A stretch of 64,000 nucleotides of DNA. Origin: Gnetum montanum (taxonomy: Eukaryota > Plantae > Gnetophyta). The position numbers and the translations under genes are program-made. Every line of letters begins with the position of its first letter. Position 1 is the first letter of the stretch. The notes beneath the pieces were generated by a model that was not told the origin of the DNA, ran no database searches, and was given only the letters and a program-made list of their open reading frames with translations. The DNA is taken from the NCBI GenBank assembly GCA_015680685.1, contig MNCI01000596.1, forward strand, positions 624,612 to 688,611, written 5' to 3'. Below are positions 1-49,948 of this stretch, in pieces.

Positions 1-1509
1 TTGGGCATTTGTGGGATGATAATCCCTTGTGTCATGGTAATCCAAAACGTATTCTGCGAACAGCTCATGCATACCAATCTGTACCAAGGCGCAGAAAAGC
101 ATGTTGGGAGCAGAGCGATCTGGGGGTAACACAATGTTACCTTGCATGTCTCTCCACCGCAGTTGCTCATCTTGATGGAAAACAAAGGTAAAATCCGGCA
201 CATACTCATCGGGATGAGTATATGTGACTTTGAATTGTTGAGGACATGGTTGATTTCGGTTATGCGTATGATCCTGACTTTCTCCTATATTGTCCTTAGG
301 TGAGTTGATTGCATGAGAAGAAGCCATTTCTAATGGTGTGTTAATTTTCCCCGTTATTTATGTTCTTAATTAACTGATTAACCCTAAGGTTCATTTTAAG
401 CTCACAACGATGTGAGTGATATCCCTTATGTTCAATTGGCGTGAAAACACTTAGTCCCCAGCAACGACGCCAATGATGAGTGGCGAGGTACCCCTACACT
501 CAACCATACGAATACGAGCGTGCACGCGCGATCCGGTCGAACTCCGCAGACTAAATGCCTTAACACTACAAGAAACGCTTGGGTTTAATAGTTCGTTGTC
601 TTCCCAGGCTTGCTTGTAAGTGTCACGGTGTATGGTTAAGCAAGTCTGAGGTATGTGATTTTTTTGGTTTATCTTCTAAGCTATGAGAGGAAAGGGTTGA
701 GAAACTAAGCTAACTCTAACTAGTGTCCTAGGTTTAAGTTAACTCGTGTCAGCATCCGTTCCCACTTATCGGAAACACCATGAACTATGCAACTGTGGCT
801 TACCAAACGCTAATCGTCACTAGGATCACCACATGTAACGCAAGTGCTCGAAGTGGTCGTACTGAGGCACCTATTTAGCTTAAGTGTGATAAGCAGCCGA
901 TTCCTTAGCTAGTCGTACACACCCGTGGGTGCTCGTAACTAAGTCGTACTTATCACACGTTCTAGCCTAGCAATGAGTAGCCAATTCCTTGACTAGCCGC
1001 ACACATTGGACTACCACTGGGATTACCAAGCACAGAATCCTGGAATACGCTACTGGGTTACCAAGTAGCCAATGCTCGTAATCAAGTCGTACTCATGCGT
1101 TGCGATAAGCAGCCGATTCCTTGACTAGTCGTACACGTCTGTAGACGCTCATAATCAAGTCGTACTTGTGTGCACTAGGAAAGTAGTAAATAAACAATAA
1201 TATATGAAACCACGTGCTACAAGGTTTATCCAATCAAGTTCGTCTTTATTGCCGTACACAACTTGGGTTCAGGTTACAAGCTGCTCGAATAAAGAGCCGT
1301 TCACTCCAGGACTCCTATTGCGGGCACATGGGAAAAATTCTAACTCTGGAGTGATCAATCTGCCAGAGCTTCACTACTTCTAGCCAGGATTGGGAAATGA
1401 AGGGAGTGCCACCTCTTATTTATAGATATGGCGGCAGACCGCGATATCGCGTATGCGATATCGTAGGGGAAGACGCGATATCGCGGCACATGCAGGTCAT
1501 GTCTCATCA
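1..1509 (-). mobile_element. 5' part of an Athila-type Ty3/gypsy element (element A): 5' LTR 474-1509, PBS 455-472, start of gag running off the window edge
   Basis: LTR bounded by TGATGAG (474) and CTCATCA (1509). Adjacent tccccagcaacgacgcca is the reverse complement of the tRNA-Asp PBS with 2 transitions. Bases 1-470 are the reverse-complement homologue of about 15445-15930. Confidence 0.92.
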
Positions 1510-4881: not shown

Positions 4882-5228
4882 ATGTCTTCTCCGTCCATAG
4901 ATTATGCACAGATGTTAAGTGATCAAAGTGAGGCGTTGAAGAGCGATGTGAGAACAGCCCTAAATGGGATTGGAAAGGCTCATTGGATTGCTGCTGGCTT
5001 AGTGGCTGTGGATTTTGTTCTTGGCAGATTCGATCTCATCTCTTCAAATAAGACAGAGTGTTTAGATCTGCTTGATGAGATGTGTCGCTTAGCAGAATAC
5101 CTTCAACTTTTGAAGCAAAGGAAGGAACAAAAATTTCAAATCCTGAGCATAATGGAGGATGCCCTGCACATGGTCGTTCAAGGATGTGCCCTATGCTTCT
5201 CCCAGGCAAAATCCTCCCCTTGGTACAG
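4882..5228 (+). CDS. NLR-like gene exon 1: N-terminal helical-bundle domain (MLKL/RPW8-like four-helix bundle, inferred)
   Basis: Open frame MSSPSIDY...GKAHWIAAGLVAVDFVLGRFDLISSNKTECLDLLDEMCRLAEYLQLL...SPWYR ending at donor AG|GTGAG (phase 2). Splices in frame to exon 2. Confidence 0.8.
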
Positions 5229-7022
5229 GTGAGCGACAATCTTGTGTCACTTTTTCCATTCTGGTTGCACGAATTTAGTTATTACTGGTAAATGAACTAT
5301 GATTTTTGACTCAATGTATGCTATGCATATCTATGTCAGATTTTTTTCAGGATCTGTACACAAGAGGTACTTGGAAGATCTCGGTCATGACCTTGAAAAA
5401 ACGTATAAACATTTGATGTTCCAAGTCATCATTAGGACTTATAATGCACAAGAACCAATTGAGATTCCTGGGATGGAATTTTACCCCAAACATGCAGGTA
5501 ATATGATCTGATTGAAACCTTGTTATGTAGTATGAGATTAATATGTAAATTTTAGTTTTTAAATTTAACTGGTCTAGACTTATCACAGTGACACCAGTGG
5601 AACAGTTGGAGTTGGAGAACCACAAGAATGTAGTGGTTGTTATTTTACATGGTTTTGGAGGTATTGGTAATACAGGTGAGGGATAATCTTGTGTCACTTT
5701 TAACATTCTAGTTAGACTAATTTAGTTATTACTAGTAAATGAGCTATGATTTTTGACTTTGTATTCTATGCATATCTATATCAGATTTTTTTCAGGATCT
5801 GTACACAAGAGGAAGTTGGAAAATCTCCGTCATGACCTTGAAAAAATGTATAAAAGTCATTATTAGGACTTATAATGCGCAAGAACCAATTGAGCTTCCT
5901 AGGATGGAGTTGTACCCAAAAGATGCAGGTAATATGATCTGATTGAAACCTTGTTATGTAGTATGGGATTAATATGTGAGTTTGAGTTTTTAAATTTAAC
6001 TGGTCTAGACTTATCGCAGTGATACCGGATGGAACGGTAGAAAAGATAGTAGAACAGTTGGAGTTGGGGAGCCACAAGAATGTAGTGGTTGTTATTTTAC
6101 ATGGTTTTGGAGGTATTGGTAATACAGGTGAGGGACAATCTTGTGCCACTTTTTCCATTCTAGTTGTTTTAGACTCATTGCGTTATTACTGGTCAATGAG
6201 CTATGATTTTTGATTCTATGTATTGTATACATATCTATATCAGATTTTTTTCAAGATCTGTACACAAGAGGCACTTGGAAGATCTCCATCATGACCCTGA
6301 AAAAATGTATAAAAGTCATCATTAGGACTTATAATGTGCAAGAACCAATTGAACTTCCTAGGATGGAATTTTACCCCAAAGACACAGGTAATATGATCTA
6401 ATCGAAACCATGTTATGTAGTATGAGATAATATGTAAATTTTAGTTTTTTAAATTTAAATGATCTAAACTTACCGGATGCAACGGTAGAAAAGATAGTAA
6501 AACAGTTGGAGTTGGAGAGCCACAAGAATGTAGTGGTTGTTATTTTACATGGTTTTGGAGGTATTGGTAATACAAGTGAGGGACAATCTTGTGTCACTTT
6601 TTCCATTCTGGTTTTTTAGACTAATTTAGTTGTTACTGGTAAATGAGCTATGATTTTTGACTCTATGTATTGTATGCATATCTATATCAGATTTTTTTCA
6701 GGATCTGTACACAAGAGGCACTTGGAAGATCTCCATATGACCTTGAAAAAAATGTATAAAAGTCATCATTAGGACTTATAATGTGCAAGAACCAATTGAG
6801 CTTCCTAGGCTGGAATTTTACCCCAAAGATGCAGGTAATATGATCTGATCGAAACCTTGTTATGTAGTATGAGATTAATATGTAAGTTTTAGTTTTTAAA
6901 TTTAACTGGTCTAGACTTCTCGCAGTGATACCAGATGGAACGGTAGAAAAGATAGTAGAACAGTTGGAGAGCCACAAGAATGTAGTGAATGTTATTTTAC
7001 ATGGTTTTGGAGGCATTGGTAA
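5224..7022 (+). repeat. Four tandem copies (about 450 bp) of intron1-exon2-intron2-start of exon3
   Basis: Units start at 5224, 5671, 6123 and 6571. The junction ggtattggtaa|taca(g/a)gtgag joins the P-loop codons to the exon-1 donor. Confidence 0.97.
5340..5497 (+). CDS. NLR-like gene exon 2 (end of helical domain and linker)
   Basis: CAG acceptor ending at 5339 and donor G|GTAAT at 5498. Reads RFFSGSVHKRYLEDLGHDLEKTYKHLMFQVIIRTYNAQEPIEIPGMEFYPKHA in frame with exon 1. Confidence 0.8.
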
Positions 7023-7158
7023 AACTACCATTGTGGATGCCGTGTATGCAAAAGTAGATGACATTTTTGAAATTCAAGTGAGACCTTCCACCAGCACAGA
7101 TGGTCAAGGAATTTATACATCATTATTTATCAGGCATTATTTATTAAGCATGATGAAG
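6926..7158 (+). CDS. NLR-like exon with the only intact NB-ARC P-loop; remainder of NB-ARC absent
   Basis: VIPDGTVEKIVEQLESHKNVVNVILHGFGGIGKTTIVDAVYAKV, with Walker A at 7003-7029. The 3' boundary (candidate GTAAC donor) is tentative. Confidence 0.7.
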
Positions 7159-12900: not shown

Positions 12901-14467
12901 TTAAGTAGAATATAACAACTTATGATTTACAATTCATAGTTTTAATTCTAAGGGGTACACTAATACAACACTATTATATTTTGCTAAGTTTTGATAAGCA
13001 TTGACTATGCCCAATATCCAACCACAGGATCTATAAGTATAGTTGAGACACATGATTGTGATATTGTTATGGCTATGCACTAAATTAAATAATAATAGTA
13101 AAGAAATTCCTCCATATGAATTAACATGTGATGAAATCATAAACATTATTTAAATATGTATAGGAAATTAAATAACCTGAAAGGTAAATATAACCTAAGC
13201 AAGAGTTCTACAATGGAAGGGGATTAATCTTGATCTTTATTGCCAATCATGAAACACATCAAGATACATTCGACTCAAACAAAGGTATTATATGATTAAT
13301 TCTAAACCATGTGATGGTACTCGCTAACTACTACTAGGAATAAGAAAACAAGATAATAAAGATTTACTACTTATTGACCTAATGATGCCATATATGTAGT
13401 AAATGAGTTATATTTATAGACATTTATTCCTACTACCATGCTACATTTGTGATATAGCATCCTAGCTTACATGCGATATCATAGTTAATTGGCACTACAA
13501 AATAATCATTCATTATATCCTCATAACTAACTAAAAACTAAACTTTGACTTATACAAAATTAAGAAAAAATGTCTTACAAAATAATAAGAGTGATACTAA
13601 ACTAACTAACTAACAAAGGATTGAGTTTTGCATTATAAAATTTATTCGAGTGGTTACATTACAAAAAATGAAAAAACTTAATAGACATACAAAGTTCATA
13701 AACATTGCAAGAGATTTTCAAAATTGTAAATGAAGGATCCAAAAGCTATACCTAGTAATGAAGGTTATTTATGCTTTAACGTCTCTTATAGCTACATCAT
13801 TAACTCCTTTACAATCATGTAAAAATGAGAAAACATTACCTTGAACTTCTCACCATCGATTTGGTCTCCAACATTCCAGGAAAGTTTGGCAAGTTGTGGT
13901 GTGGTTGGAACATTCCATGAACATGGAAATGTTGGAAACCTTTTATTTTCTTAGATAAACTACCAAGTGAAATTAGTACGTTCAATTTTAAGCAACATTA
14001 CCTTGTCCTTGTTTGCCTAGTAGTCTACCATTCTCTTTGCTAGGTTCTTTGTAACATCCCTCTAGTTTGTAAAGTTTACCTTGAGAACCTCTAACTTGAT
14101 GTTTACAATTTGCAACTTCTACTTTTCTTAATCATGAAGTTGGCATTCATGTTCATAGAGGGAGAATATAGTGGCAACTAGCTTCAATCTCTAGTTTTGA
14201 TCACAAGCTTTCAAATGTAAACATAGATAAATTAACATATCTTAGGTTATTCAATTCAAGGTCATGAGTTAGGTCTTTGATTTGAAGATCCTTCATCATA
14301 AGTTTGGCTTGATTCCTTACATTGATTCTATCTAGGATGCTTGCTTATGTTGTTGTAGTAGGTTATTGTAAAGCAATGTTTAAATTAGACTTCGATACTT
14401 TGATTTTCTTTTCATTGATCTCCTTCTATAGCTCTACTTGATCTTTGAGATGCTTTTTAAACACTTT

Positions 14468-15444
14468 TGATGAGACGCGATTCGCATGAGTTGCGATATC
14501 GCATACGTGATATCGCGTCGTCCCCTACAATGTCGTGTATGCCATATCACGGTCTGCCGCCACATCTATAAATAAGAGGCGACACTTCCTTTATTTCCCA
14601 TCCTAGGCTAGAAGTAGAGAAACTTTGGTAGATTGATCACTCTAGAGATAGAATATTTTCCATGTGCATGTAGTAGGAGTCCCCAAGTGAACGGATCTTT
14701 ATTTGAGCAACATTGTACCTGAATGCAAGTTTCGTACGACAATAAAGACGAGCTTTGTGGATAAACCTTGCAGTGCATGGAATAGGATTTATTACTTGTT
14801 ATTTATTACCTGTTATTTCCTACCTATTATTTATTACCCTGCAGTAGCGCTGCATGAGTACGACTTGATTACGAGCATTTACGAATGTGTACGGCTAATC
14901 AAGGAATTGGCTGCTCATCGCGATTAGATTCTCTCACCCTCAACTCATAGAATGTGGAATGAGTACAACTTGATTACAAGCATCTAAGGATGTGTACGGC
15001 TAGTCAAGGAATGGATGCTCATTACGCTTAGGCTAGTTAAGTGCCTTAGTACGACCACTTTAAGCATGTGCGTTACGTGTGGTGATCCCAGTAACGATTA
15101 GCGTTTGGTAGTCGCGGTTGCATAGTTCAGGGTGTGTACGGTAAGTGGGAATGGATGCTGACGCTAGTTAATTTAGACTTAGGTCATTAGTTAGAGTTAG
15201 CTAGTTTCTCAACCCTTCACCTCAATAGCATAGAAGAAAAACATAAAAAGATATAAAAATCATATACCTCGGACTTACTTAACCGTACACCGTGACAAAC
15301 ACAAGTAAGTCTGGGAAGACAACGAATGATTAAGCCCAAGTGTTCCATGGGGCATGTAGGCACTTAGTCTATGAAGTTCGATCAGATCGCATGTGCTACG
15401 CTTGTTTCATATGGTTGAGTGTAGGGGTACCTCGCCACTCATCA
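14468..15444 (+). repeat. 5' LTR of element B (977 bp)
   Basis: 7-bp terminal inverted repeat, GATATC palindrome array, TATAAATA near 14567 and AATAAA at 14741. Confidence 0.96.
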
Positions 15445-15445
15445 T

Positions 15446-15463
15446 TGGCGCCGTTGCCGGGGA
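15446..15463 (+). promoter_or_regulatory. Primer-binding site complementary to the tRNA-Asp 3' end
   Basis: TGGCGCCGTTGCCGGGGA 1 nt after the LTR, the typical Athila PBS. Confidence 0.95.
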
Positions 15464-15589
15464 CTAAGTGTTTGTGCGCCGAATAGAACATAAAGGATAT
15501 CATTCACATCATTGTGGGCCTTAACGAACCTTCGAGTTAATCAAACAAAAAAAAATTTATATAATGGTGAATTAGAACACCGATAAAAA

Positions 15590-18500
15590 ATGTCTTCTTC
15601 TCATAAGAGTAACTCACCACCTAAAGACCATAAACGAGACAGTCGGAAACATAAAACACATAACCAAAATCAGCCAGTACCTCAACAATATAAGATGACA
15701 TATACTCATCCTGATGAGTATATCCCTAACTTTACTTTTATTCTCCATCAAGATGAACAGATGAGCTGGAGAGATTTGCAAGGTAACATTGTGTTACCTC
15801 CAGATCGATCAGTCCCAAACATGCTTTTTCATGCCTTGGCATAGATAGGCATGACTGAATTATATGTTGAATACGTTGTAGACGATTTCAACATGAGGGA
15901 TTATTATCCCACAGATGCCCAACGTATGAGGGACTTAAGGCAAGAGAGTCAACATACACTGCTGAAGGGCAAAGGTCTGCACGTCCTTAGCAAAATAGGA
16001 GATGAGGAACCCCTTATAATGGGTTCTTTAGCAAACAATGTTCCCCCTCCTAACAATGATGAGGAGGTTGGGTATCAGAACCTACGATCAACGATACATA
16101 ACCATGGTTCTGATGCCCATGAACACCAACTATTCACAGAGGGAACAACCACTCATGCTAAGGACGAGCACTTAGATCGTCACCATGATCGGGGCCATAG
16201 CAGCTGAAGAGAAGGCAAGAAACATCGTCATGACGATGGTTCCCCTTCTTCTTCCCCTTCTTCACATCACTCACCCTCTCCTTCTACATCTGGGTGCAGT
16301 CACCATGAACATAAAGGTGAGGATAAAGGTAGATAAAAGGAGAGACCTCGACGGGAAAGTCGAGAGAGAGGACAAGGGCAAGGACATAGGGAGAGTAGGG
16401 AACAACGTAGACATCACAGGCATCATGAAAGAGATGACCATGATGAGCCCCTACTCGCAACCCGAAGTATGCTTAACATAACGAAGGTAGTTAGGATTCC
16501 CACAAGGCATTTAAAAGATAGTCGGATCAAACGATTAGACATGAACAATATCCCACGATTTGAAGGAGGATACAATGAAAATCCGCAAAATCATTTACAG
16601 GCATTCCACTATGCATGTGCCTTGTAGAATATAGAAAATGAGTGGCAAAAACTTAAGTTGTTTCCAAGGACACTCACCAAAGAAGTAGAGAGTTGGTATC
16701 GGTCCTTAGAAATAGAAACCATCAGGAGGTGGAGTACGATGTTAGAACTATTCAACGAAAAGTATCAGACATACTCCAGAGTGTCCAATTTGCATAAGCA
16801 GATCCAAGTATGGAAACAAGGTCATCACGAACCCTTGGATGCTGCCATGACCCACTACTACACATTGTTACATCGTTGCCCAGGCCATGGGTACGCTTAG
16901 CGGGATCAACTTCGCCACATTGTGGATGGGCTAAGGCATGGAACTAGAAGAACCCTTGGAACTTATGCCCAAGGGAGACTCTCACAACTTAGAGCCCATG
17001 AAGTACATCACTTGTTGGAGCAAGTAGCAAAAGAAGAAGGTGAGCTACGAAAAAGAAAAAGTGTGGAAGAATACAACCGTGATCCCTCTCTTCGAAAGAA
17101 GGGAGTGAAATTTTGNNNNNNNNNNNNNNNNNNNNNNNNNNNNNNNNNNNNNNNNNNNNNNNNNNNNNNNNNNNNNNNNNNNNNNNNNNNNNNNNNNNNN
17201 NNNNNNNNNNNNNNNNNNNNNNNNNNNNNNNNNNNNNNNNNNNNNNNNNNNNNNNNNNNNNNNNNNNNNNNNNNNNNNNNNNNNNNNNNNNNNNNNNNNN
17301 NNNNNNNNNNNNNNNNNNNNNNNNNNNNNNNNNNNNNNNNNNNNNNNNNNNNNNNNNNNNNNNNNNNNNNNNNNNNNNNNNNNNNNNNCACCACCAACAC
17401 AACAGTACCCTTATTGGCAACCTAATCCTTATGGTTATTATGTGTAGTAGCCGATTTTCCCAGGTGACTCTATGGGTCACATAAACCCTCCATGTTACTA
17501 CCGAGTTTAGGAGTATTTTAGGACTCCTTCTCCTTTGGGAAACACTCCATACCCACACTATCCTCCAAATCCATCCACATCTCTTGTGCCAGTAGTCCCA
17601 CCGCCAATTGCTCCAACAAAGCCTAGAGTAATTCCCACTCAACCACGACAACCCAACATTGTGAGGGCTCCCAATCCTCAATTCTCAGTTGGTTCTAACA
17701 ATCATACACCAAAAAGACCTTTCCTTAGGACCAACAATCCAACCAAACCCTTGCCTTCACAAGCGGTTGAGCATCTAAACACCTCCATACCAAATAAGGT
17801 TTCGGGAAACCCTTCGACAGAGAAATCGCGCCCAATGCATACAGTTATTTTAACACATACAGTAATCGACTGGATCAAGGTCGACCACCTTCCAAAGAAA
17901 TTATCGGATCCGGGAGTCCCCCTAGTTTACCTCTAATTCGCTAGGAATGAACCCCATAAGGTTCTCCTTGACTCAAGTTTCGGAGTCAACTTAATTTCAT
18001 AAGAACTGTATAAAACCTGGAACTTGCCTCCACTCAAGAAGAGAAATATTGGCTTAGAGCTGGCTGACTAGTCCATCACTATTCCTTTGGGATAGGTTGA
18101 GGACATTGTTACCACTATGGGTGGTTGATCATATCCAGCCGATTTCCTAGTGATCCAAATAAACAATGACAAAGGGGATTTCCCAATTATAATGGGAAGG
18201 GCATGGCTGAATACAATTGATGCATGCCTAGGAATCCGCAATCTTTTCCTAGAAGATCCAAGACAAATACTTTTGAAAAAATTGAGAGGAAAAGAGTTCC
18301 ATGCATCGCATATAGTGACACAGGGTGTCATTTTGTGCAGAAATCATGGGTGATGCGAAGTTTAACATTGCCTGCATGCAATTGGTGTGCATAGGATATT
18401 GACATACAAAAGTGCCTATATGCGGCAGCCACACAACAAGAAAACACCCAGTAGTTGATGGCTGATAAATAGAACAACTCAACAACCTGCATGGAACTAG

Positions 18501-21440
18501 CTGAGGGAATAACTAGTGCTTACATTGAAAGCATAGACGTATTAGAGTAAGTCTGTTGCCAACTTCCAACCGTTAACTCCAAAAACATTAATTTGGGGAA
18601 GTTGGAGATTCCTGAGGAGTTTAAACAAGAGCCCCTAGATTTAAAACCATTGCCCACTGGTTTGGAATACATGACCCTTAAAAATGGAAAATCAATAATC
18701 ATCAATGCAAAGCTCGCACCCAAGCAAGAAGAAAGTTTGCTAAAGGTGATAAACAAGTGGTCAACAACCTTTGCCTGGTCATACCTTGAACTAATCGGAA
18801 TAGATCCTAGGATATGCTAGCATAGGATTTACACAGATCCCTCAATGAAACCTCGAAAGCAACCCCAGAGGTGATTGAACCCAAAGTTAAAAAAAATAGT
18901 GAAAGAGGAGATAGAGCAGCTTCTCAAGGTTGGGTTCATTTACCCTATTGCTGATAGCTAGTGGGTTAGTCCTCTTGTAATTGTATCGAAAAAAGGAGGT
19001 AAATGGAGGGTATGTATAGATTTTAGGCTATTAAATATGGCAACATTCAAAGATCACTTCCCATTGCCATTTGTTGACCAAGTATTAGACACTATAGCAG
19101 GGCATCACTATTACAGTTTTCTGGATGGGTATAGTGGGTACAACCAAATACGAATTGCGCCAGAAGACCAAGCCAAAACAACATTCACCAGTCCTTGGGG
19201 AACATTTGCATACAAACAAATGCCTTTTGGCTTGTGCAATGCAGCTGCCACATTCCAACGATTAGTTCTAAGAATATTTCAACAGCAAATAGGTAATGGA
19301 GTAGAAGTCTTCATGGACAACTTCTCCACTTATGGGATGAGCTTTGATCAAGCCCTTGACTGGTTAGAGCAAGTATTGAAATGATGTGTTGAAACCAACC
19401 TAAAGCTTAACTGGCAGAAGAGCCATTTGATGGTTCAAGAGGGCATCGTACTGGGGCATAAAATTTCACAATCAGGAATTGAGATGGATCCAGAAAAAAT
19501 TAAAGTCATCCAAGGAATTACCTGACAACCAGAAACCGTTAAAGACATTAGGTCATTTCTTGGACACACTGGCTACTATAGGAGGTTTATCGAGCACTTC
19601 TCCAAAGTTGTCAAGATGTTGGTGGAATTAACAAAAAAAGATGCACCATTTGAATGGACCAAGGAATGTGAACAAGCATTCCAAACTCTCAAACCGAGGC
19701 TTGTGGAAACTCCCATTCTACAAGTCCCTGACTGGTCCAGGCCATTCCATATCATGACCGACACATCTAATTATGCCTTAGGAGCTGTACTGACACAATT
19801 AGATGAACAAAAATGACCTTATTACATCCATTGTGCCAGTAAGAGTATCACCGGTGCACAACTCAACTACATGACTACAGAAAAGGAATTAATGGTTGTA
19901 GTGTTTGCACTGGACAAATTTAGGCACTATGTATTTGGTTACAAAGTATACATCCGTACAGATCATAGTGCAATTAGGTTCCTTATGAACAAGCCAATAG
20001 TTAGCCCACGTATCATACGTTGGTTGGTAATTCTTCAGGAGTTCGATTTAACAATAGTAGACCGCAAAGGCACCGAGAATGTAGTCGCCGATCACCTATC
20101 TTGGTTGTGTTGGGACAACAAAGAGGATGAATATGCTATATCTAATCATTGTCCTAATGAAACCCTCTTTACTGGTGTAGTGAATGATCAACCCATGGAA
20201 ATAAATTGGTATAGTAGCATTCTTACTTATCTCACTTCCCAAAAAATACCATAGGGGTTGGACTTTAGGAAGAAACAATAGTTTCTTCACAAAACCAAGT
20301 ACTTCATGGAAATCAAGGGACAACTCTATAAAGTCTATCCTGATTGCTTGGTTCGATGGTGTGTGCCTGATCAGGATCAATTAAAAGTTCTCTAAGATGC
20401 TCATGAGGGCCCCTGTGGGGGTCATTATGCTGGGAGATGAACGGCTACCAAGGTCCTGCTTGCAGGATATTATTGGCCAACACTATTTCGGGATGCCCAT
20501 CATTTCACCCAATCCTGTGAGCACTGCCAACGTGACGGTGGAATGATTGCTAGAATGGAGGGTCTAGAACAATGGATTCAACCTTTGGAATCCTTTGATA
20601 TCTGGGGAATAGATTTTATGGGGCCTATTACGCCGATGTCCAACGAAAAGGCATATATCATCGTTGCTGTTGATTACTTAACAAAATGGGCTGAACCAGC
20701 CATAGTAACAGATTGCACATCATCTACGGCTGCACAATTTGTACAACAACAAATCGTAAATAGGTTTGGTGTGCCACATGCACTCATCTCGGATAATGGA
20801 ACACATTTCATGGGTGCAACCTTTTGCAAAATTATGCAATGCTTAGGGGTTGAGCATAAATTGACCACACCTTACCACCCCCAAGCTAATGGCCAAGCCG
20901 AGGTTACTAACCGGGAGATTACCAGAATATTAAAGAGAATGATTAGCAAATTTAGGCGAGACTAGAGCACAAAACTAAACGACACTCTCTGGGAATACCG
21001 ATCCACTTGGAAGCTCCCTCTAGGCTATTCTCCCTATGAGTTAGTGTACAGGAAACTACCAAAGCTCCCCATACAGAATGAGCTCTGTATACTATCCATG
21101 GCTTGTGACCTCCATCTAGACCTTGACTTAGCATAGAAACAACGGTTGGAAACTCTGAACGTGCTAGACGAGAATAGATTGGTTGCACTATCATTAAATG
21201 AGTTGCATAAAGCACACAGTAAATAGTGTCATGACTTAAGAATTCGAAGGCTTAGGTACCAACCGGGAGACAAGGTCCTTTATTGGAATCCCACGCATGT
21301 ACCTCAGTGTACAAAATTTCAAACATTGTGGGAAGGACCCTATATTATTCATACAACCTTCCCCTCTAGAGCCATGATGATATACAAACCTAACAGCCCA
21401 GATAAATGATTATTGGTTAACGTACAACAAACAAAACCTT
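15590..21440 (+). pseudogene. gag-pol of element B with stops and frameshifts
   Basis: gag LFPRTLTKEVESWYRSL; PR KLSDPG..LLDS..IIMGRAWL; RT KDHFPLPFVDQVL/FLDGYSGYNQI/MPFGLCNA/VFMDN; RH TTEKEL..TDHSA; INT WGIDFMGP/ISDNGTHF/YHPQANGQAE and W.GPY. Confidence 0.95.
17116..17388. other. Assembly gap (273 N)
   Basis: Run of N. Confidence 1.
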
Positions 21441-23455
21441 TTCGTGAACCCGCAACAACCAGTACAAGTTACACACCCACTAGTGGGCAACCTCGCTCAT
21501 TATTTCGGATCTCTCCCTTACAACTCAGTCATGGGGGAGATGGAAACCTATGCTAATCATATGGGGCCCTCAGTTTTTTTTTATTTTTGTTTTACACGTT
21601 TTTGTCTTACACCTTTTTGTTTTACAAATTTCTTTATGTTTTTGTTTTACAACATCGTTATACTTTTTCCATTTTGTGTGTGTGTGTGTGTGTGTGTTCC
21701 ACCATGTAAGTTTTTCACCCAATAAGTGTTCAGAATGATGGTATGAACTGTTTTCATATTAATTGCTAATGTTTGATTTTTACCTTTAAGTCACAATGTT
21801 GATACTAAGGTATGTTTCTTTTGATATGGCAGGCAATGAGACCACTTCATCCATCCATCCACCAGTTTCTATGGTCTCTCTTGGCTTGCAAATGTATAGT
21901 CGCCTTCTAATAAGGACTTAAACGAATCGGTGACTGGGCATTTCTTAAACTAAGGAAGGACTCAAGGATTGCAAAGGGTGTGACTTCAAGAGAAGTTGAG
22001 GCTTTTGTGTTAGTCATTCTCTTAGGTGCTTGGATGTTTTCTTCTTGAGTTTTCTTGTCGTTTCGATGTTATCCAATTATCAGAAGCTGAGTCAATAAAA
22101 ATAAAAAGTCTTTGCATGGTGTGGTTCTCACGCATAAAAACACAAAACATACAAAAAAAAAGAAAAAAAAGAAAAAAAGAAAAAAAGTGAGAATTCAAAG
22201 CACACCCCTTAGACAAAATAAAACTTGGGCTACAAGCACTGGTTATGGAACCAAAAGTGTTCCCTCTAACTAAGGCCCTTCTCGCTTCCCATTCCCTACT
22301 TTGTTTCATCAGAATGGTGGTGGCTCTTTGGAGATGCATTCTTATTATTCAAGTGGTTGGTTTGGCCGAATGCATTGATGCAAATTCACTGGATGTGGTT
22401 GGTTTGAAGCTGGACTTGGAATGGGATTTGCAAAGTCACATTAATCATGAAACACACAAGGGGCTGTACACCACCTTATTCTTGAGATTCCATTCCATCC
22501 TCTTCTCTCCACCCTTCTCCCCATTGTTCACCTCATTGCCGGTTGTATCATTCGTGTACATATTTTGGTTGATGCATTGTTTTATTTTTGGTAAATTCTT
22601 ATGGTTAAGACTTTAACTCTTGTTCCAAATGACATTCCTAGAGCCTACGGACTCTTTGAATGCAGGTTTGTCAGGGCATTCAGGACATGGGCCTGCTTTG
22701 GGGAGGACCCACTGACATTCCTATTTGGAGCATTAGTTAAATTCTTTCCCCTAACATTTTGCAATTAATTTTCTTTTGTTCATTACCATCTTGACACCCA
22801 TTTCATCAATGCTATAGTTGTCCCTTTTTATCTATCTTTCTTACTCCCTTTCTTTCTTCATTCTAACGCTACCGGAGGTTCACGATTAGTCATGGGGGTA
22901 CGGGGCCTGATTTTTTTGATTTTCTCCTAGCCCTGAATTTTTTGATTTTCTTCCTAACCCCTACACCTTTGGTAGTCATCATTAATATATCCCCAAATCC
23001 GTATTAGCCATATCACAACCTAGCCAATGGATCTACACCAAAGCAAGGTATCAATTACATGATGATTCATTTACCCTTGCTAATATAAGATTGTGTTGTG
23101 TGTGCAGATGGCGATCATACAAACAACGGATTGGATCTGGAGCAAACACTTGGAATGGAGCAGCGTTGAAGCAGCTATGCAAGGAGCAAGGTCGATGGTG
23201 TAGTTATGGATAAACAACAAAGATGTAATCTTGGCGTTGGCAGTAGCAACACTTCTTTCTCTCTCTCTTTCTCAGCTGCCAACTAAGGCCTGATGTCATT
23301 GTAATAAGGTGTTCACCCTTGTTGTCATGAACACCAGTTTTTTCAAGTCTTGTAATGATGATCCGTTAACATGTCATCCCATTAGTTCCATTCCCCTCAA
23401 TAATTCCATACCTTCCCAATATTATTGTAAGGAACTCGAGGACAAGTTTTCATTC

Positions 23456-23468
23456 AGTCATGGGGGTA
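23456..23468 (+). promoter_or_regulatory. Polypurine-tract-like AGTCATGGGGG before the 3' LTR
   Basis: Abuts the 3' LTR; the same motif occurs at 21527-21537 and 22888-22898. Confidence 0.85.
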
Positions 23469-24478
23469 TGATGAGATGTGATTTGCATGAGCTGCGATAT
23501 CTCATCCCATGTGATATCACGTATGCGATATCGTGTCATCCCCTGCGATGTCGCGTACGCGTTATCGCGGTCCACCGCCAAATCTATAAATTAGAGGCGG
23601 TAGTCCCCTTATTTCCCATCATAGGCTAGAAGTAGGAAAACTATGGCAGATTGATCACTCCAGAGATAGAATATTTTCCATGTGCCTGCAGTAGGAGTCC
23701 CCAAGTGAACAGATATTTATTCGAGCAACATTGTACCTAAACACAAGTTGTGTACGGCAATAAAGACGAGCTTTGTGGATAAACCTTGCAGTGCATGGAA
23801 TAGGATTTATTACTTGTTATTTATAATCCTTGTTATTTATTACCTGTTATTTCCTACCTATTATTTATTACCCTGCAGTAGCGCGGCATGAGTACGACTT
23901 GATTACAAGCATTTACGAATGTGTATGGCTAATCAAGAAATCGGCTGCTCATCAAGATTAGATTCTCTCACCCTTAACTTCTAGAATGCGGAATGAGTAT
24001 GACTTGATTACGAGCATCTAAGGATGTGTACAACTAGTCAAGGAATGGATGCTCATTACGCTTAGGCTAGTTAAGTTCCTCAGTACGACCACTTCGAGCA
24101 CATGCGTTACGCATGGTGATCCTAGTAACGATTAGCATTTGGTAGCTACGGTTGCGTAGTTCAGGGTGTGTACGGTAAGTGGGAACGAATGTTGACGCTA
24201 GTTAATTTAGACTTAGGTCATTAGTTAGAGTTAGCTAGTTTCTCAACCCTTCACCTCAATAGCATAGGAGAAAAACATAAAAAGATATAAAAATCATATA
24301 CCTCAGACTTACTTAACCGTACACCATGACAAACACAAGTAAGTCTAGGAAGACAACGAATGATTAACCCTAAATGTTCCATGGGGCGTGTAGGCACTTA
24401 GTCTGTAGAGTTCGAATGGATCACACATGCTACGCTCGTTTTGTATGGTTGAGTGTAGGGGTACCTCGCCACTCATCA
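23469..24478 (+). repeat. 3' LTR of element B (1010 bp)
   Basis: Colinear with 14468-15444; differs mostly by transitions plus two indels of about 17 bp. Confidence 0.96.
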
Positions 24479-25330: not shown

Positions 25331-28140
25331 TGATGAATCATGGTTTGTTAGGTGTTGATATTTGACCCTTGATATCAGACCCTTGATATCGAACCCTCGA
25401 TATTGGGTATGCGATATCGTGGCCTGGATAACGATATCAGATACATAATATTGTGATTCCTGTGTAAGCCTATAAATAAACATTTGGGTGCATAAGAAGG
25501 GGGGAGTCAATAAGTGTAGGAGTAGAGTCTTTTTGTTCATTTTTAGTTCATCTCAACTCTTTCCCTAGTGCATGCCCATAGTGTGACGATTGTAATTCTA
25601 TGGAAACTTTATTCAAGTGTGACGTACTTGGGCATGCACATGACCAGCAATAAAGATCGAGATTACTCCATCATTGTAGCATTCACTTAGTTTTAATTGC
25701 TTAATTATTATTGTTATTCATTTTTTTGTTAATTAATGTTTCTTTAACTTCCTTTACTATCCCTGTTATTAAATGTGGAATGAGTACGGCTTAATCACAA
25801 GCATTTAAGTGTGACTACTTGGTAACCTAGTAGCATATTTAGGAACGCTTAAGTAATATATGCTTGGTAATCTCAGAAGTAGTACATGAGGTCCAAGATG
25901 TGTATAGATGATTAAGGATGGATGCTCATCACACTTAGGCTAGCTTAGATTCTCTTCTCCTACTCCCTCTTAGCTTAAAACAAAGCTATTTTCCATTGCC
26001 TCTAGGAGTAGCACTAGTTTAGGCCCACATCATACATCTCACTTTGGACTAAACCATATGTGACAAAGCAGATACTATTCTAGTTGGGAAGACAACAAAC
26101 TACAATCAATGTGTAACTATCTAGATACCACAACTAGCCTATCTATGGAGTTCGACTGGATTGTGCATGAACACTTGTATTCGTATGGTTGAGTGTAGGG
26201 GTACCTCGCCACTCATCATTGGTGCCATTTCTGGGGATGGTGTTAGTTATCTAGATTAGTTACATCATACAAGATCGCTGTAATGAAGCATTAACATTAT
26301 ATCTTTTAGAAAAGAGATTAATTTCAAGTAAGTTACACACAATTTGTAGTAATGTCTCCATCACAAGACCATGCTAATGCCACAACTAGTGAGGCAATTC
26401 ATTGGAGAACCAACAAATTCTATGATGATGAAGACGAAGTTGAGAGTACTCAATCTTATGCAGAGTCCTCCTATGTACATAAACAAAGAAAACATTGTTC
26501 CAAATCACAAATCCATAACCTACCTAGTGACGATGAACTCTTGCTAGCCACTAAGAGCCTAATGCATATACAAGAGGTTGTTTGAATATCCCGTAGGCAT
26601 CATAAGGAAAGCCTTCTACCCAGGCTTGATTTAAACAACTTTCCCAAATTTTCAGGAGGCTATGATTTAGATCTGCAACATTATTTACAAGTCTTCCATG
26701 ATGCTTGTGTATGGAATAATATTGATAATGGGTGGAAAAAACTTAAGATCTTTCTTACGACACTTGTTGGCCACGAAAAAATATGGTACAAGTCCTTAAG
26801 ACCAAAATCAATTTGACATTGGTCAACAATGGTAGAACTCTTCAATGAAAGATATAAAACCTATGCAAGAGTGTCAGCCTTGAGGAGAAAAATCCAAGAG
26901 TGGAAAAAAGTGCAACATGAACCCTTGAACATGGCCTTAGAAAGATATTACTCTTTGTTAAACAAATGCCTAGGCCATGGGTTTTTCGAGGAAAGGCTAA
27001 TGTACCATAGCATGGAGAGGCTTCGTAATGAGACAAGGAAGACCCTAGGGATGTATGTCCGAGGTCAACTATATGAGCTATGAACCCATCAATTCTAAGA
27101 GCTTATTAAGTAGGTAGAAAAAGAAGAAGTAGAAATGGCTAAATGGGAGAATGTTGAAAGGTCTCAACGGGACCAAAATCTTGAATTAGCAAAGGTCCAT
27201 AATAATGAAGAGGAGAAATCAACTCACCTCAAGGAGGTGGAATCATCTTTGCCAATACTACAATCACTAGATGAAATTGAGACAAAGATCAATAAGATGA
27301 TGGAATGGATACATGAAAAATGTGAAGAATATGCCAACACTATTAAAGGTAGAACCATGACGAACCAAGAAGTAGGACAAAACACCCTTAAGCAATCGGA
27401 AAGAAGGGTTGAAGAGAATAAGAACTCAACTGCTAATCATACGTATCAATGTACTATTTGCCTATATGATCACCCCAAAGGTAAATGCCCAATATTGTGA
27501 CATTTACATGAGCATTGGGGAGGAATGTTACATCTAGAGTTCATACAAAAATACTGTGTTCAGTCATAGTGGCAAAAATCCCAATCATGGAGGAGCCCAC
27601 CCCCAAATTGGTCACACCCTTCATATCATCCGAACCCAAGCGCTTATTAGGTTCAACATCCTATTTCCTCAATTGGGTCAACATCCTCTATCTCACCACA
27701 TCATTATCATTCTCCTAAATACTATCAACCCATGTCCTCTCCCACAAGATCACCACCTCATGTTCCTTGCACTTCTCCTCGCCCTCAATATTCTCATCCT
27801 TCACCTCCTTCTACATTGCCACCAATAGTACCAGTAGGTTTTGTACCATAGCACCAACCCATGAATGTTACTTGTGCTACTACTGTCAACAACAGTGGAG
27901 GTCCTCCACAATGTCAAAAGCATCCTTTCTTTAGGCATGACTATAGAAATAGACAACATAGTTTTGAAACCACTGCATCCACCACCTCAACACAAGTCCA
28001 GTGCTGCGATGCATCTCCTCCTTCAAACCCAACACATCCTGTTACGTTATCCAAGCCACCAATCAACACTCCAAAAACTATGTGGCCCAATGAATATAAC
28101 CACGTAGGGAGACATATTGATCCTTGCATACCATCTTAAG
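25331..28140 (+). mobile_element. Partial Athila-type element C: 5' LTR 25331-26218, PBS 26220-26237, decayed gag
   Basis: TGATGAA..CTCATCA ends; LTR 3' end identical to B (tatggttgagtgtaggggtacctcgccactcatca); PBS tggtgccatttctgggga; gag ELFNERYKTYARVS..HEPL homologous to B. Confidence 0.9.
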
Positions 28141-35711: not shown

Positions 35712-37150
35712 TGGTGACTGTTTGGGATGCGACCGCCAACGAGTGTCCTCAAACAAGATTTAGGTGCTTGCTGGTCTCTGGCAACACCAAGGCCCAGATA
35801 CCTCCAAATAGACTCAGTAGTTAATGTGAGTATGTGTGTGTGCTGTTGCAATGTGCGGTTGTGAAATATGAAACAATTGCATTGTGTGTAAACTACAAAT
35901 GACTTATCTTAAAGAGATTCAGCCAACTTTGCCAAGTACTGTGAGTTCCTCTTTTGTTCAATTGCATAGTTTATGCGGTCCTTATAATACCTACTTGTAA
36001 CAAATAAAATTTTGCAAAAACATTTGAGCACAACTCTACAAATCTACTTCTAATTTTCCCTAGAGAAAGAGATAGTTCCACAAGAAAACTAGAAATAGAG
36101 CGAGATTCAATGGAAATAGACAGAAAGGAAATAAGATTTGTGTTAAGACCTCAAATATTTAAACAAGGTAAAATGATACGAGTAAACACTTCACAATAAA
36201 GCTATCCCAAATTCAATATCTACGAATTGTTCAAACTTCCAAGGCTCAAATAAGCAATTTCTTCGAGACAATCCTACTATGCTACCAAAAAATTGCTGTG
36301 TAAACTATCACGTACAAGACTCCATTTTGGCTAGATAATGGATGTCAACAATTGCATTCAACAAAACCTTCAAAAGACTTGACAATTTCTGATTGAAATA
36401 CCATGGAGATTCACTTTAAAGATAAAAAGAAGCTATTCTGGTCCCATCAAAATACCAAAGATTTTCTGAACCCTCTTGACTATTGAATCGTTCAACGGCA
36501 TGACTACAAGCAGAGGCTCTCTTACAACAATCTCAATAGCAGTTCTTATACGTTGCACAATAATAAAATTTACTACTAAAATGCTCTTAAGGCTTTTAAA
36601 CACAAGCGCTTCTATGGCAAAATTTTAACAGAAATTTTCTATCGGGCAACAAGAACAATAAGAGCAATCTAAAAATCCCAAAATTACTTGCCAAGGATGA
36701 TACTATCTAAACCACTAGCTAAACAATTTAAACAAAATAAAAAAAAATAAGCATAACTCACAGGACTATGAAAAAGAGGCTGAAATCTTTTTTTTAGCAA
36801 ACCATCTTACAAGAAATCTTTTACAATTTCTTCTTTACAATTCTCTTCTTCCAAGACTCAAAGTGTGTCTCCAAGTGAGAGCCCAAGTGTGATCCCAAGT
36901 CTTCCAAAGTGTGTTGTATTGTCCCTCCCTTGTGTTTTTTTTCTTCTTACCCCTAAAGCCTTTTTATAGGGTTCAAAGGTAATTACATACTTTAAAATAT
37001 CTTAGCTAACTTCTCTCCCAAGTAAGGAAGTTACAACTTACCCAACTAGTTAGGAGATATTTCTCAGCAATTTAGTTGGGAAGTTATGTAGTTAGGAAGT
37101 TATACATAAAGTTAGGAGGAATTTATGCTAACATTGATATTTGTAAATAT
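35712..37150 (-). repeat. Dispersed LTR-like repeat, copy 1 (inverted relative to copy 2)
   Basis: Reverse complement aligns with 56650-58142, e.g. ccattgaatctcgctctatttctagttttcttgtggaact and the shared ...GTCACCA terminus. TATA-like tract near 36960. Confidence 0.8.
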
Positions 37151-39625: not shown

Positions 39626-40531
39626 TGATAAAATCATTTTAGTCATCCAATGTAATATCCTATTTACAATATTGTAGCTTTGCTTATGTCATCGTAGATA
39701 TGATGCAGTGGATCTTGGTCTCCATTATAAATACCAAATCACTGTCATGTCAAAGGAACAACTTTGTTCCAACACTTAGGCAAATTCTTGTAGTTTTTTC
39801 TCTTGATTTACACTTAGTAATATAGTGAATGCCCATAGTATGGTAGTAATCAATTATATGGAATCTTTATTTGAGTGAATTGTTCTTGAGCATAGTTCAT
39901 GACTAGAAATAAAGATCAAGATTTTTCCACTAGTACAACATTCTACTAATCTACTTGACATTAATTAGTTCATTTTCTTACTTAGTTAATTTTCATCTTT
40001 TTAATATGCTTACTTTGATTAAATCATTTATAGATTCTAAGGACTTTACTATTCCATCATTCATTAATATGGTATTATAGGTACAACTAGTTTTGAACAT
40101 ATAGTATAATTTTTTGGTAATCCCAGTATTGTTATTACTTGGTTCACTTAGTAGCATAATACTTGACAACCCCAGTGATAGTTGCATAAGCCCAAGACAT
40201 GAATGGTAAAACTAGGAATGGATACTTATTGCCTATAAGATAGAATAGTTTCTCTACTTGCATTGCACTTAGATTTAGATTCTATTAATCTATTTTGATT
40301 ATGTTTACACTTAGTCTTAATTTGAGCCAACACCATCAATCTATCATATGTCTCACCAAGAGTTAAACCATACAACTTGCACTTTAATAACTTAAAGTGA
40401 GGAGACAATGATCATTAACTAAGCCTCAACTACTAGTGAATTTATATTGACCATTCATGGATTATGATCAAGTCACACATGTATACTTGTGATTTGTATG
40501 ATGAAGTGTTGGAATACCTAGGTGATCATCA
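39626..40531 (+). repeat. Old Athila-type 3' LTR (element D), preceded by 3' internal sequence from about 38900
   Basis: Decayed PPT agttgtgagggta, TGATA..TCATCA ends, aataaagatc motif and the shared U5 hairpin module. Confidence 0.75.
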
Positions 40532-46300: not shown

Positions 46301-49300
46301 AATCTAGTTCAAAAAGTTATATGTGAATTTTCTCCATCTCATCCATCTTATCTATATAGGCACTTGTGATGATTTCTAATGGTTCCATGTACATTATGGA
46401 ACTATAGCTATAATTTTTTGTTAGCCACTAGGTACCTTCTCATTTTATGGCTACTACATATAGGCACCTTTGAATGCTCATGGTTTCAGCATACTTACTA
46501 CATGCTATAATAGATGTGCTTATGATTGCTCATATTTTCTATGCACAATGGCACCCTATGTTATTGTATGTGATGCATGGAATCCTATTTTTCTTAATCT
46601 TATCAAATTTATTTTTCATAGAAATTTTCAAGGAAAGGTATATAATCCCTAATTTAGAATCAATTGTACGTAGCCAGGCCATTCCCATAATGATTGAATA
46701 GTCTCCTCTACAATTATCTACATGGATAAGTAGGAAGTTTATTGGATATGAGCATCTACAATGAGTGGTCACAATGTCATCTACCAATTCCAATGAAACA
46801 GTAATGGATTGGTTATAAGCTCTAACTTGATATTACATTTCTTAAGTAGATGTAGGTTCCATGTTTTATATATTTCTTGAGAAATTATGTTTATATCAAA
46901 ACTTGACTCTAATATTGCTTTTCATGGATCATTCCCTATAATCTATAACTAAACTAAAGGACTTTGAGGATTAGTTTTCTTTTAGTATCATGTTGGATTC
47001 AAGGCATAAACTCTAGATTCTTGCAAGTATAATAGTATTGGGTAACATCCCTTGGGATATTCATATTGGCAGATTTCACATCCTTCATATGTTATATCAA
47101 AATTTGCAACCTCATCAACTACCATAACCTTACCTTTCTATTGATGGTAGTCCTTTACTATATTTTTTTTTTTGCTTCTTTTGTCTTTGTCCTTGTTTCC
47201 CTACCTTGTTTTCTCCTTCATATTTTTAATAGTAATTTGGAAATTTTTATCCAAGGATTTTTATATTTTATCCACCCTAGATAGTATCTCTATGATAGAT
47301 GTTTGAATCAACAAAGTTTTTCTTTACAAAACCTCCTATAGTGGTGCTTTTTCCTTAGGATCACAGAGATGTATCTTCCTTTTGTGAATAGAAGGATCTT
47401 TGTTATACTCCTCTATACTTTCTCTCCTTTTTATCTCTTCTTTCTCTTTTTCCACTTGATCAATAAGCCTTTGTGTCCAATGGGTTCTCATTTTTGACAA
47501 TCTCCCTTGGGCATTGATCCTAAGAGTCTCTTTGAATTTATTCTTGTGTCCATCTATCACATGACAAAGATTCTTCATTTGAAAGAAATCATTACTTGGG
47601 CATCGATGTAACAAAGAATAGTATCTTCACAAGGCTACATCAATGGATTCATGATTACCTTGTTTTCACCCTAAAATCTGGTTTCTCAAGTTGGACATCA
47701 TGGAGTACATTTGATATTTATCATCATACAACTCCAATATTGAAATCCATCCATGGATAGATTCCAATTCCAAAGACTAGTGCCAACTTTCAACTTCTTT
47801 AATAAGTATTTTAGGGAACAATTTGATCTTTTTCTAGTCATTCTTAATGTTTTACAAGGCACAAGCATTATGAAATTCTTGCAAATTTTGTTCTGGATCA
47901 GCATTGTAATCTTCCTCGAACTTAAGGATGTTGTTCATATTAAGCCATTTGATTTAGCTATCCCTTTGATTCTTGGTGGAAGTATGACCTATCTCTAAGA
48001 TGTTCATCATGATTTGGTCAAAAGGATTTGTTCATCATAGTCATTATATTTGTGATGATCCCTATCATGGCCATGTCTTCTATGATGTGGCTTGCTATGC
48101 CTTCTCTCCTAATGATGTTTCTCCTCTTCTTGTTGTTGTTTATGTTTCCTTCTCCCATTCCTATGATGGGATCTTCTATCATTTTCACCTTGGTATTAAT
48201 CATTTCTCCTTATGTCACAGTTGCATTCTCCCTTGTTAGAGCTTGATAATGAGAAGGATAAAAACTAGGAGAGTTATGTTGGCTTACTTTCCTTCTCTAG
48301 TCCCTTTTTTTTTCTTTTGGTGGATGGCTGGAAAACATTGGTCTTGAGGTTCTTCTAGTTTTGGGACCAATTCTACCCTTACCTTGATTTCTTACAAAGG
48401 TTTAATGTAACCATTGATGAGTTGCATTATTCTCACAAAAGGGAGAAGGACCTTGGCATTGAGATCACCCTAATAGAAGTTTTGTATCCTCCTTTTCTAA
48501 CTATAAGGTTAATGTGATTAGGACCTTCTTACTCCTAGAAGCTTCAAGGTTAGCCTCCATGAGTTTATCTTTTCTAAGTTAGGCTCTATTGGTTGATAGT
48601 CTTTGGAGAGGTGTTCCATCACTTGGTATTTTGGGAATGTTGGTTCAAGTACCAACTTCATTAGTACTACCATGAATAGTGAGGAAATAGTATAATCAAG
48701 TGGCAACATAATGTTGTCCTTCAAGTTTCTTCAGTGTAGTTTCTCATTCTAGTGAATGATGAAAGTGAAATATATATAATTGGGATCTAGATGAATATAA
48801 AAAAACTTCAGTTATTGTGGTATGCCATTACCATTTCTCTTGGTCTTGTAATTTTATTTGTTAAGATCATCAGCAAGTAGAAAATCAACCCTGCTAGAAG
48901 AAGAAATTTTCTATTTATTCTTTTTTTCAGTATACCTTGAATAGAATATTATTATTTTTCCAAGGATGATGCATTATATTTCTACAATAACCTTTGTATG
49001 ATTTAACTATCTAAAATACTTAGTGCATAATAGTTAAAAGTTAGTCCCAAATAATGGAACCAATGATGAGTGATGAGTAGTCCCTATGCCTAATGTTACA
49101 AATCACAAGTGTGTTTGTGTGATTCGGTCAAACTCTATAGACATCTTTTACCTAAGTTTCTTTTATCCTACATAGTTAAACATGAGGTTACTAGTCATTG
49201 TCTTCCCAATTATCACTTGTGTTATTTCTATCCATATGACTAAGTGTGATTAAGGTGTAAGATATTTGTATTTATAATTTTATAATTTGTTATCTTTAAA

Positions 49301-49948
49301 AGTATTAAGAGATGAGGTAATTAAAATATTATACTTTACTCATTAATGAAACTAAATATAATCTAAACTATCCTAAATGTAGAGCATCCCTTCCTACTTT
49401 TTGTACATATCCTAAACTTATACTAACATTGTTGAATTACCAAGTGTTTACTTTTGGATGTACTAAGTATTCATTGGTAGGATTACCAAGCGTTAGCATA
49501 TTATGCTCAAAGTGGATTTACTCTCATTATTATGGAATAAAATATTAAATTCTTAAGTATAGAAAAGTAGAATGCATGTAAAATAAAATGATTGTAAGTA
49601 AACTAAATGCTAATTCAAGTGTTGCAATGAAGAGAAAAAATCTCAATTTTATTTCTATCATGCAAAAGTATCTAGGTATATCTTGTACTCAAATAAAAAT
49701 TTGTACAATTAATTCAATTCAGAATATGAGAACTTAGAGGGAAATTTTACTAAGTGATATAGCAAAAAATTGCAAGAGCTTCACTAGATGAATGATCAAA
49801 GGTATCATAAATGTAGCTAGTGTGTGCATTTATATATGCTTAGGAAGAATCATCATTGATGCATATGCTTCAACACATACAAGGATGCATTGATGAGGCT
49901 ATGTCGATGGGCATGCATCAATACAACAAACTTATTTAGACTTCATCA
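43377..49948 (-). mobile_element. Decayed Athila-type element E: 5' LTR 49064-49948, PBS 49045-49062, gag-PR-RT-RH-INT; 3' LTR not found
   Basis: TGATGAG..TTCATCA ends; gag LLHRCPS..NAQGRLS; PR IIMGMAWLRTID; RT VEVFMDDFST; INT HEGPCG and GPY; internal PPT ctcccccaacgact at 43377. Confidence 0.9.

Follow-up and report, generated by a model that had tools for sequence, protein, structure and literature searches.

The long terminal repeats (LTRs) of diverged retrotransposon families in the 64-kb stretch of DNA analysed here (the window) repeatedly present one small, asymmetric RNA internal loop, CGA opposite G-N(2-3, rarely 1)-CGG-H, and we are highly confident that it belongs to a sense-strand RNA structure under selection. 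That such a structure shows the same asymmetric loop many times over had been proposed in a preliminary description of this DNA, and our analysis supports it. Because the loop is kept in sequence and its stems only in pairing, and because it occurs in two orientations and in variable number, we read it as a binding site. By analogy, one protein, probably the Gag encoded by the element itself, may dock at its many copies, which would aid packaging of the genomic RNA; this is our preferred reading, advanced as a real possibility rather than a probability.

Element B spans positions 14468-24478 of the plus strand and has nearly matching 5-bp flanks (acttt/acttc). Its 5′ LTR (14468-15444, TG..CA; B5) and 3′ LTR (23469-24478; B3) are 87.5% identical, and 76 of the 93 differences between them are transitions, which calibrates the decay to be expected of the loop. 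A primer-binding site (PBS; 15446-15463), which we take to be of tRNA-Asp type and which is common to six of 79 related loci, precedes a broken gag-pol (15590-21451) with an orphan N-terminal domain, an Arg/His-rich stretch, gag, RT, RNase H and integrase. Pfam shows the four last-named domains to be broken, in the order gag-RT-RNase H-integrase; B does not have the additional RNase H that marks Tat elements ahead of the integrase, it is collinear with P0054 residues 892-1845 without insertion, and in these respects it has the layout of an Athila-type element. The closest matches of its RT (66-72% identical) are loblolly-pine gene models and metagenome proteins, and B forms a long branch grouped with nine conifer-like loci (support 100/99) in an RT tree that uses 26 of 80 rows and contains no named Athila reference. 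These affinities point to a land plant with a large genome as the probable host, perhaps a gymnosperm. The B LTR was found, whole or in part, in 20 sequencing runs under nine organism labels from 11 studies, and at least half of its words are present in eight runs; runs X16-X20, whose shares are small, do not enter into the evidence. The window itself is repeat-rich, holds no ATG-started open reading frame of at least 150 aa and is strongly depleted of CpG outside the younger elements. Among its other repeats are four tandem copies of a ~450-nt unit (5224-7025, 85-87% alike) and a ~1-kb inverted repeat pair (35746-36820 and 57042-58063), which probably belongs to another repeat family; its members are 73-75% alike and separated by 20 kb.

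Most copies of the loop sit in hairpin modules of the form P1-[CGA / GAA(U)CGG(C/A)]-P2-[CGA / GUACGGY]-P3. Ten such modules had been described, three per B LTR and four in LTR A, and all ten are there. B5 carries two short modules of two loops each (B5.1, 14854-14918; B5.2, 14959-15022) and a long one (B5.3, 15046-15161) with two loops and an apical part that has two UGGU-R-A words, at 15080 and 15106; the modules of B3 lie at 23888-23952, 23993-24056 and 24080-24195. LTR A (474-1503, minus strand) has modules at 1105-1169, 973-1096 (long), 884-958 and 749-865 (long). The stems, too, were found as quoted (for example P1 AUGAGUA/UGCUCAU, AUAAGUA/UGCUUAU and UCAGUA/UGCUGA). Missed until now were further single modules in LTRs C, D and E, along with two loops around AAUAAA. 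LTR C (25592-25931, plus strand) has one long module at 25778-25931, with P2 CUUAAUCA/UGAUUAAG; LTR E (39848-40231, plus strand) has one at 40075-40231, with P2 CUAGUUU/AAACUAG; and LTR D, which is old and decayed (49378-49716, minus strand), has one at 49378-49527. These three LTRs match A or B by blastn in patches only, and their P2 helices differ in sequence and still pair. A covariance model built from 13 copies retrieved no further full module in the window, and a search of LTR F for a U5 module found none. Each module-bearing LTR has one to four modules, and loops number up to ten per LTR.

The long module, with its GG-containing apical loops, looks like the ancestral form, being the sole one in C, D and E; short modules would have arisen from it by duplication and loss of the tip. 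At the apex of long modules in A, B, C, D and E, small stems present two or three UGGU-R-A-Y-CC words, and these UGGU loops may resemble tRNA-CCA-binding loops; RNAalifold, run on 11 apical hairpins in our own alignment, returned no consensus pairs. A perfect GUAAGU splice-donor word in the third B module was set aside, as the other LTR families A, C, D and E have not retained it.

Our count of the loop comprises 39 copies, picked by a pairing-aware scan and by eye and exclusive of the outer loop of the C poly(A) hairpin, which has extra letters. Their 273 core cells hold 56 C>T or G>A changes and five changes of any other kind. The loops, earlier called nearly invariant, are so once C>T/G>A decay is allowed for, except that the middle (1-3 nt) and the last letter of the long strand vary freely. 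The pair closing the 5′ side of CGA is A-U or U-A in all but one copy (38/39). In the flanks, 301 of 312 pairs are able to form, against a shuffled mean of 172, and 45 G-U cells versus six A-C cells favour the sense strand. The same preference stands for the recurrent G-U pairs noted previously, although the U-G of P1 alternates with U-A in 26-35% of family sequence. CpG-rich as they are, the loops have been kept across five diverged LTR families despite the CpG-depleted window. A scan for the intact motif with free stems, the motif having been derived from the scanned sequences themselves, gave 12 hits at 10 distinct CGA positions (shuffled mean, 0.04); all 12 fall within LTRs A, B5 and B3 on the sense strand, with none on their antisense. 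A decay-tolerant scan was unspecific (87 hits in the window and 457 in the 79 loci).

The stems change in a compensatory way, as had been claimed. In the 13-copy alignment, 92.7% of 248 stem cells are paired and eight of 20 pairs have changed on both sides, A-U/U-A and G-C/C-G swaps included; neither value is attained in any of 500 shuffles, and controls with a slid structure are 28-44% paired, the shuffles ignoring relatedness and the counts being inflated by related copies and by the chosen structure. A family-wide check set module 1 against one RNA run and against the contigs of three DNA runs, which bear three organism labels, and covered unphased variants in sequence at least 80% like the query. 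Among 21 variant rows at a level of at least 6%, ten positions in P2 and P3 make up five complete partner pairs, all of them pairing-preserving and all transitions: 14867/14900, 14868/14899, 14869/14898, 14877/14886 and 14879/14884, with shares in the RNA run of 9/12, 10/9, 10/55, 27/29 and 65/68%, respectively. Random placement would yield five complete partner pairs with a probability of 2.4e-4. One partner pair is discordant in run X1 (11.8% versus 0.7%). The other 11 rows comprise one change of P1 from U-G to U-A, four in the tip loop and six in the internal loops, the latter exclusively C/T or G/A transitions.

The loop also occurs outside the modules. Weak model matches at 1244-1294 and 23716-23764 led to a poly(A)-signal hairpin, located in B5 at 14685-14755 (plus strand), whose mid-stem helix (14696-703 with 14741-48) holds AAUAAA, at 14741, in its 3′ strand, opposite a UUUAUU-type strand. 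Two copies of the loop flank this helix in mirror orientation, an inner one at 14704-06/14734-40 and an outer one at 14689-95/14749-51; in the outer one, unlike in all others, the long strand comes first and CGA lies 3′ of it. Head-to-tail duplication cannot explain loops in mirror orientation. Their presence around the poly(A)-signal helix also makes the unit smaller than the module of the preliminary description: the stems and loops of that fold stand, whereas the real unit is a portable loop. Counterparts of the hairpin lie in LTRs A (about 1236-1306), B3 (about 23703-23773), C (25592-25676), D (49628-49716), E (39848-39930) and F (13218-13302, minus strand, with both loops). The AAUAAA helix is thus present in 7/7 LTR copies examined, F included, and is 98% paired across them. 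As F retains the hairpin and no U5 module was found there, this hairpin is the most widely kept part of the system. Only three of its 10 pairs show double changes, a score reached by 34 of 500 shuffles, and the hairpins are no stabler than shuffles (z -1.2 to +0.7).

Folded in isolation, five of the six short copies adopt the proposed hairpin with z of -2.0 to -5.0; module A.1 (z 0.05) is not distinct in this respect, and neither are three out of four long copies in A and B. Several long modules do form P1 and P2 when folded on their own, and forcing P1-P3 on long modules costs 1-14 kcal/mol. When whole leaders are folded, the AAUAAA helix and most short-module helices exceed a pairing probability of 0.8 on the sense strand, and fewer helices form on the antisense; in B5, seven of the eight AAUAAA-helix pairs reach 0.85-0.97, while module B5.1 has about 0.4 for P1 and about 0.1 for P3. 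Long modules of decayed copies have pairing probabilities near 0 in these folds. Decay has gone least far in module 884-958 and the poly(A) hairpin of LTR A.

Further features were seen in the LTRs. The U5 region ends in a hairpin (15410-15444, plus strand; z -2.2) with the palindrome GGUACC at its tip, a candidate dimerisation site. LTRs A, B5 and C share an identical 37-nt end (472-508, minus strand; 15410-15446; 26184-26220) though the families are far apart. Another U5 hairpin, at 15268-15322 and 590-650 (minus strand; z -3.0 and -2.7), has a double change between A and B and is followed by a GGGAAGACAA word, which C and D have too. At the 5′ ends of LTRs (14468-14560, 1440-1500 and 25370-25460), palindromic words of the GCGATATCGC type are repeated in variable number and are possible DNA-level promoter elements.

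The array lies between TATA/AAUAAA and the PBS. Its position downstream of both the TATA box and AATAAA, claimed before, holds in B5, where a TATA-like box at 14566-14573 and AAUAAA at 14741 are followed by modules from 14854 onwards; the TATA-AAUAAA spacing is similar in A, C, D and F. Transcription, placed ~30 nt downstream of the TATA-like box, would start near 14600, and 3′ ends would form just after AAUAAA. R would then contain the poly(A) hairpin and U5 the array, with the full set present in the 5′ leader alone. In X22 and X21, two RNA runs with a strand bias, depth on one strand is 164-410 and 197-274, respectively, over 14532-14751, and 14-81 and 47-189 over the array; an unstranded RNA run is roughly flat, with a dip at 14796-14839. 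These depths reflect sense transcripts if the first mate is antisense, as is usual. In that case they fit a 3′ end just after AAUAAA, which would leave the array in U5; no sharp RNA start or end was seen in the three raw-read runs. Between 77 and 90% of the reads continue into unlike sequence, from other copies, and the steep fall in depth beyond the LTR end means that most of this RNA is not genomic RNA.

The motif had not been recognised as a known family, and a check against Rfam is in line with this, the best scores for two LTRs being 14.5 and 21.7 bits against thresholds of 45 and 57. The loop E/sarcin-ricin motif consists of AGUA opposite GAA between regular helices; here, the AGUA of P1 pairs with UGCU, not GAA, and the mirror and inner loops are without this arrangement. 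A kink-turn has a three-nucleotide bulge and then tandem G-A and A-G pairs (PMC2790904, in part); the present loop has only one nucleotide 5′ of GA on the short strand and its spare nucleotides 3′ of GA on the other strand, and 18 of the 39 copies have U where the second A is needed.

Judged from sequence, the motif would resemble retroviral leader signals, the poly(A) hairpin and CTE/RxRE in its manner of working, and it matches none of them in sequence. In HIV-1, the DIS hairpin has a conserved asymmetric internal loop, G x AGG, to which Gag binds, and HIV-2/SIVmac has the palindrome GGUACC (PMC10483063, in part). The leaders studied here likewise combine an asymmetric purine-rich loop on a variable stem with a GGUACC-tipped hairpin; unlike in HIV, the loop is 3 x 6-8, has another sequence, occurs in up to ten copies, lies within the LTR upstream of the PBS and is a putative binding site. 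HIV-1 is also thought to suppress its 5′ AAUAAA by a poly(A) hairpin (PMC12789967, in part). In our LTRs, an AAUAAA in the presumed R is similarly paired in a stem-loop, but its helix is flanked by two copies of the U5 loop and the hairpin is thermodynamically weak. The internal loops of the CTE are mirror-symmetric, and the occurrence of two internal loops on a long stem-loop, in our poly(A) hairpin as in our modules, is a general likeness to it. The CTE of MPMV/SRV is such a long stem-loop with two internal loops, and the RxRE of HTLV-1, an LTR-located element, has a link with polyadenylation (PMC7551171, in part). Neither matches in sequence, the CTE sits at the 3′ end and binds NXF1, and neither such a factor nor a Rex-like gene is shown here. 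Among LTR retrotransposons, Ty1 Gag binds a domain of the Ty1 5′ RNA (PMC6844567, in part), and BARE has cis-acting 5′ RNA signals for packaging and dimerisation (PMC3735527, in part). The role proposed here for a cis-acting 5′ RNA in Gag binding, dimerisation and packaging would be of this kind; both elements are, however, copia-type, and the available parts of these two papers describe no repeated internal-loop array.

In its Gypsy domain order, B is like the Athila-related Gymny of Pinus (PMC2633040, in part) and the conifer-like metagenome elements. Six of the latter loci share its PBS type, and their RTs are 64-72% identical. The LTRs of these conifer-like sisters gave no motif match, a narrow negative that covers six loci with the B-type PBS, of which four have 1.5 kb above the PBS and two of those are near-identical. 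Model R1 gave three hits in the 79 loci (493,696 bases), at E 3-7.5, and the intact-motif scan three isolated ones. The exact module pattern had no match in viral or metagenome contigs, and the exact poly(A)-hairpin pattern none in the 79 loci or viral contigs. In the corresponding LTR region, sisters L001 (2267-2372), L006 (5981-6086) and L021 (1648-2415) carry a GYTGTTCC-type short repeat, which has a 15-nt period in L001 and L006. We found no description of such a motif in the literature covered, mostly articles outside subscription and without supplements. The available parts of the papers on Tto1 (PMC3061985) and Gymny (PMC2633040) describe no such array, and a comparative study of LTRs, in which those of plant Metaviridae could not be modelled, does not mention Athila in the part available (PMC3601003).

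The most economical ligand would be Gag, and in particular its basic N-terminal extension. An orphan domain of ~90 aa stands at the Gag N-terminus in elements A (1-327, minus strand), B (15590-15930) and D (about 48600-48800, minus strand), and an Arg/His-rich stretch precedes the capsid region in B, C and D. The orphan domain has one homologue among 1.84 billion representative proteins, with no Pfam match, no homologues of greater length and no fold match; its structural model (pLDDT 57) is a low-confidence arrangement of three strands and two helices. Elements with AAUAAA in R must suppress that signal at the 5′ end. Here, the A-U-rich helix would mask AAUAAA at the 5′ end, and a protein seated on the two flanking loops would clamp and stabilise this weak helix, favouring read-through; several loops on stacked stems would give avid, cooperative binding. 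A more elaborate version would be a Rev/Rex-like switch evolved in this lineage, in which a lineage-specific basic N-terminal domain of Gag binds the portable loop; binding would clamp the hairpin over AAUAAA at the 5′ end and distribute Gag over the U5 array, so that transcription at full length and packaging are coupled. We regard this as speculative and, taken as a whole, rather unlikely. Several observations speak against docking by Gag. Element C has the module but not the orphan N-terminal domain, long modules are not favoured in whole-leader folds and the poly(A) hairpins gain no stability over shuffles. In addition, solo LTRs, too, yield transcripts with any signal that is placed inside the LTR, which makes such a placement ill suited to selective packaging.

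The main competitor, in our view unlikely yet deserving serious attention, is that a host factor or another element-encoded factor binds the loop and that its main job is in processing or export, that is, in the use of AAUAAA in the 5′ versus 3′ LTR or in the export of unspliced RNA, in the manner of CTE, RxRE or TAR-type elements. The loops flanking AAUAAA in every one of the seven LTRs, and LTR F with its hairpin and no U5 module found, argue for this, as do the precedents of CTE and RxRE (PMC7551171, in part). Yet processing or export alone leaves the U5 expansion to 6-8 loops in A and B unexplained, no candidate factor has been identified, and nearness to the promoter can be enough to suppress a 5′ poly(A) site, with no such structure involved (PMC12789967, in part). 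Somewhat less likely still, the loop could be an architectural three-dimensional motif that shapes the leader with no specific protein ligand, either by bending it or by serving as a site of tertiary docking, to which the apical GG-containing loops might attach. Its use in both orientations and the near-constant A-U/U-A closing pair are consistent with such a role; its letters allow a drawing with a sheared A-G pair and a CG helix of two pairs, and the apical words alternate between GUAA and GUGA, which we take to fit GNRA loops. On the other side, the internal loops of the short modules and the poly(A) hairpin come without apical words, the k-turn and loop-E patterns are absent, and one to four modules per LTR suit additive binding better than a fixed fold.

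Three further explanations carry very little weight. Transcription-factor sites at the DNA level, built on GTAC (presumably an SBP/SPL-type motif) within a duplicated promoter-proximal unit, would account for 8-10 GTAC per ~1-kb LTR in A and B, compared with 146 in the 64-kb window. However, 21 of the 39 long strands have A at position 2 and hence no GTAC, and compensatory stems, G-U excess and mirror orientation are left unexplained; we consider this highly improbable account largely refuted already. Equally improbable is self-cleavage or other catalysis by the RNA of the long module; a catalytic role, suggested in the preliminary description, has gained no support. Its multi-helix structure and conserved loop letters would allow it, and plant LTR elements bearing ribozymes exist (PMC4918200, in part). 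Against it, there is no Rfam ribozyme match at E up to 10 and, in a weak test, no pile of read starts or ends in the three raw-read runs; moreover, cleavage in U5 would sever the leader, and the loop occurs in two orientations and on bare hairpins. Finally, a neutral by-product of tandem and inverted duplication might be entertained, given the evident duplication of modules in A and B and the rise in covariation counts that relatedness among copies brings; we find it scarcely credible, since CpG-rich loops persist in five diverged families within CpG-depleted surroundings and double changes include transversions.

How LTR retrotransposons dimerise and package their RNA is little known (PMC6844567, in part). 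For plant gypsy elements, both the selection of RNA and the avoidance of the 5′ poly(A) site are largely unknown. In the present lineage, compensatory variants already exist in nature around a loop of ten nucleotides, which occurs in both orientations and in LTRs with one to four modules, and the element family is common to several related organism labels. The reach of the motif looks limited to one host lineage; the loop may add an internal-loop motif to the RNA catalogue.
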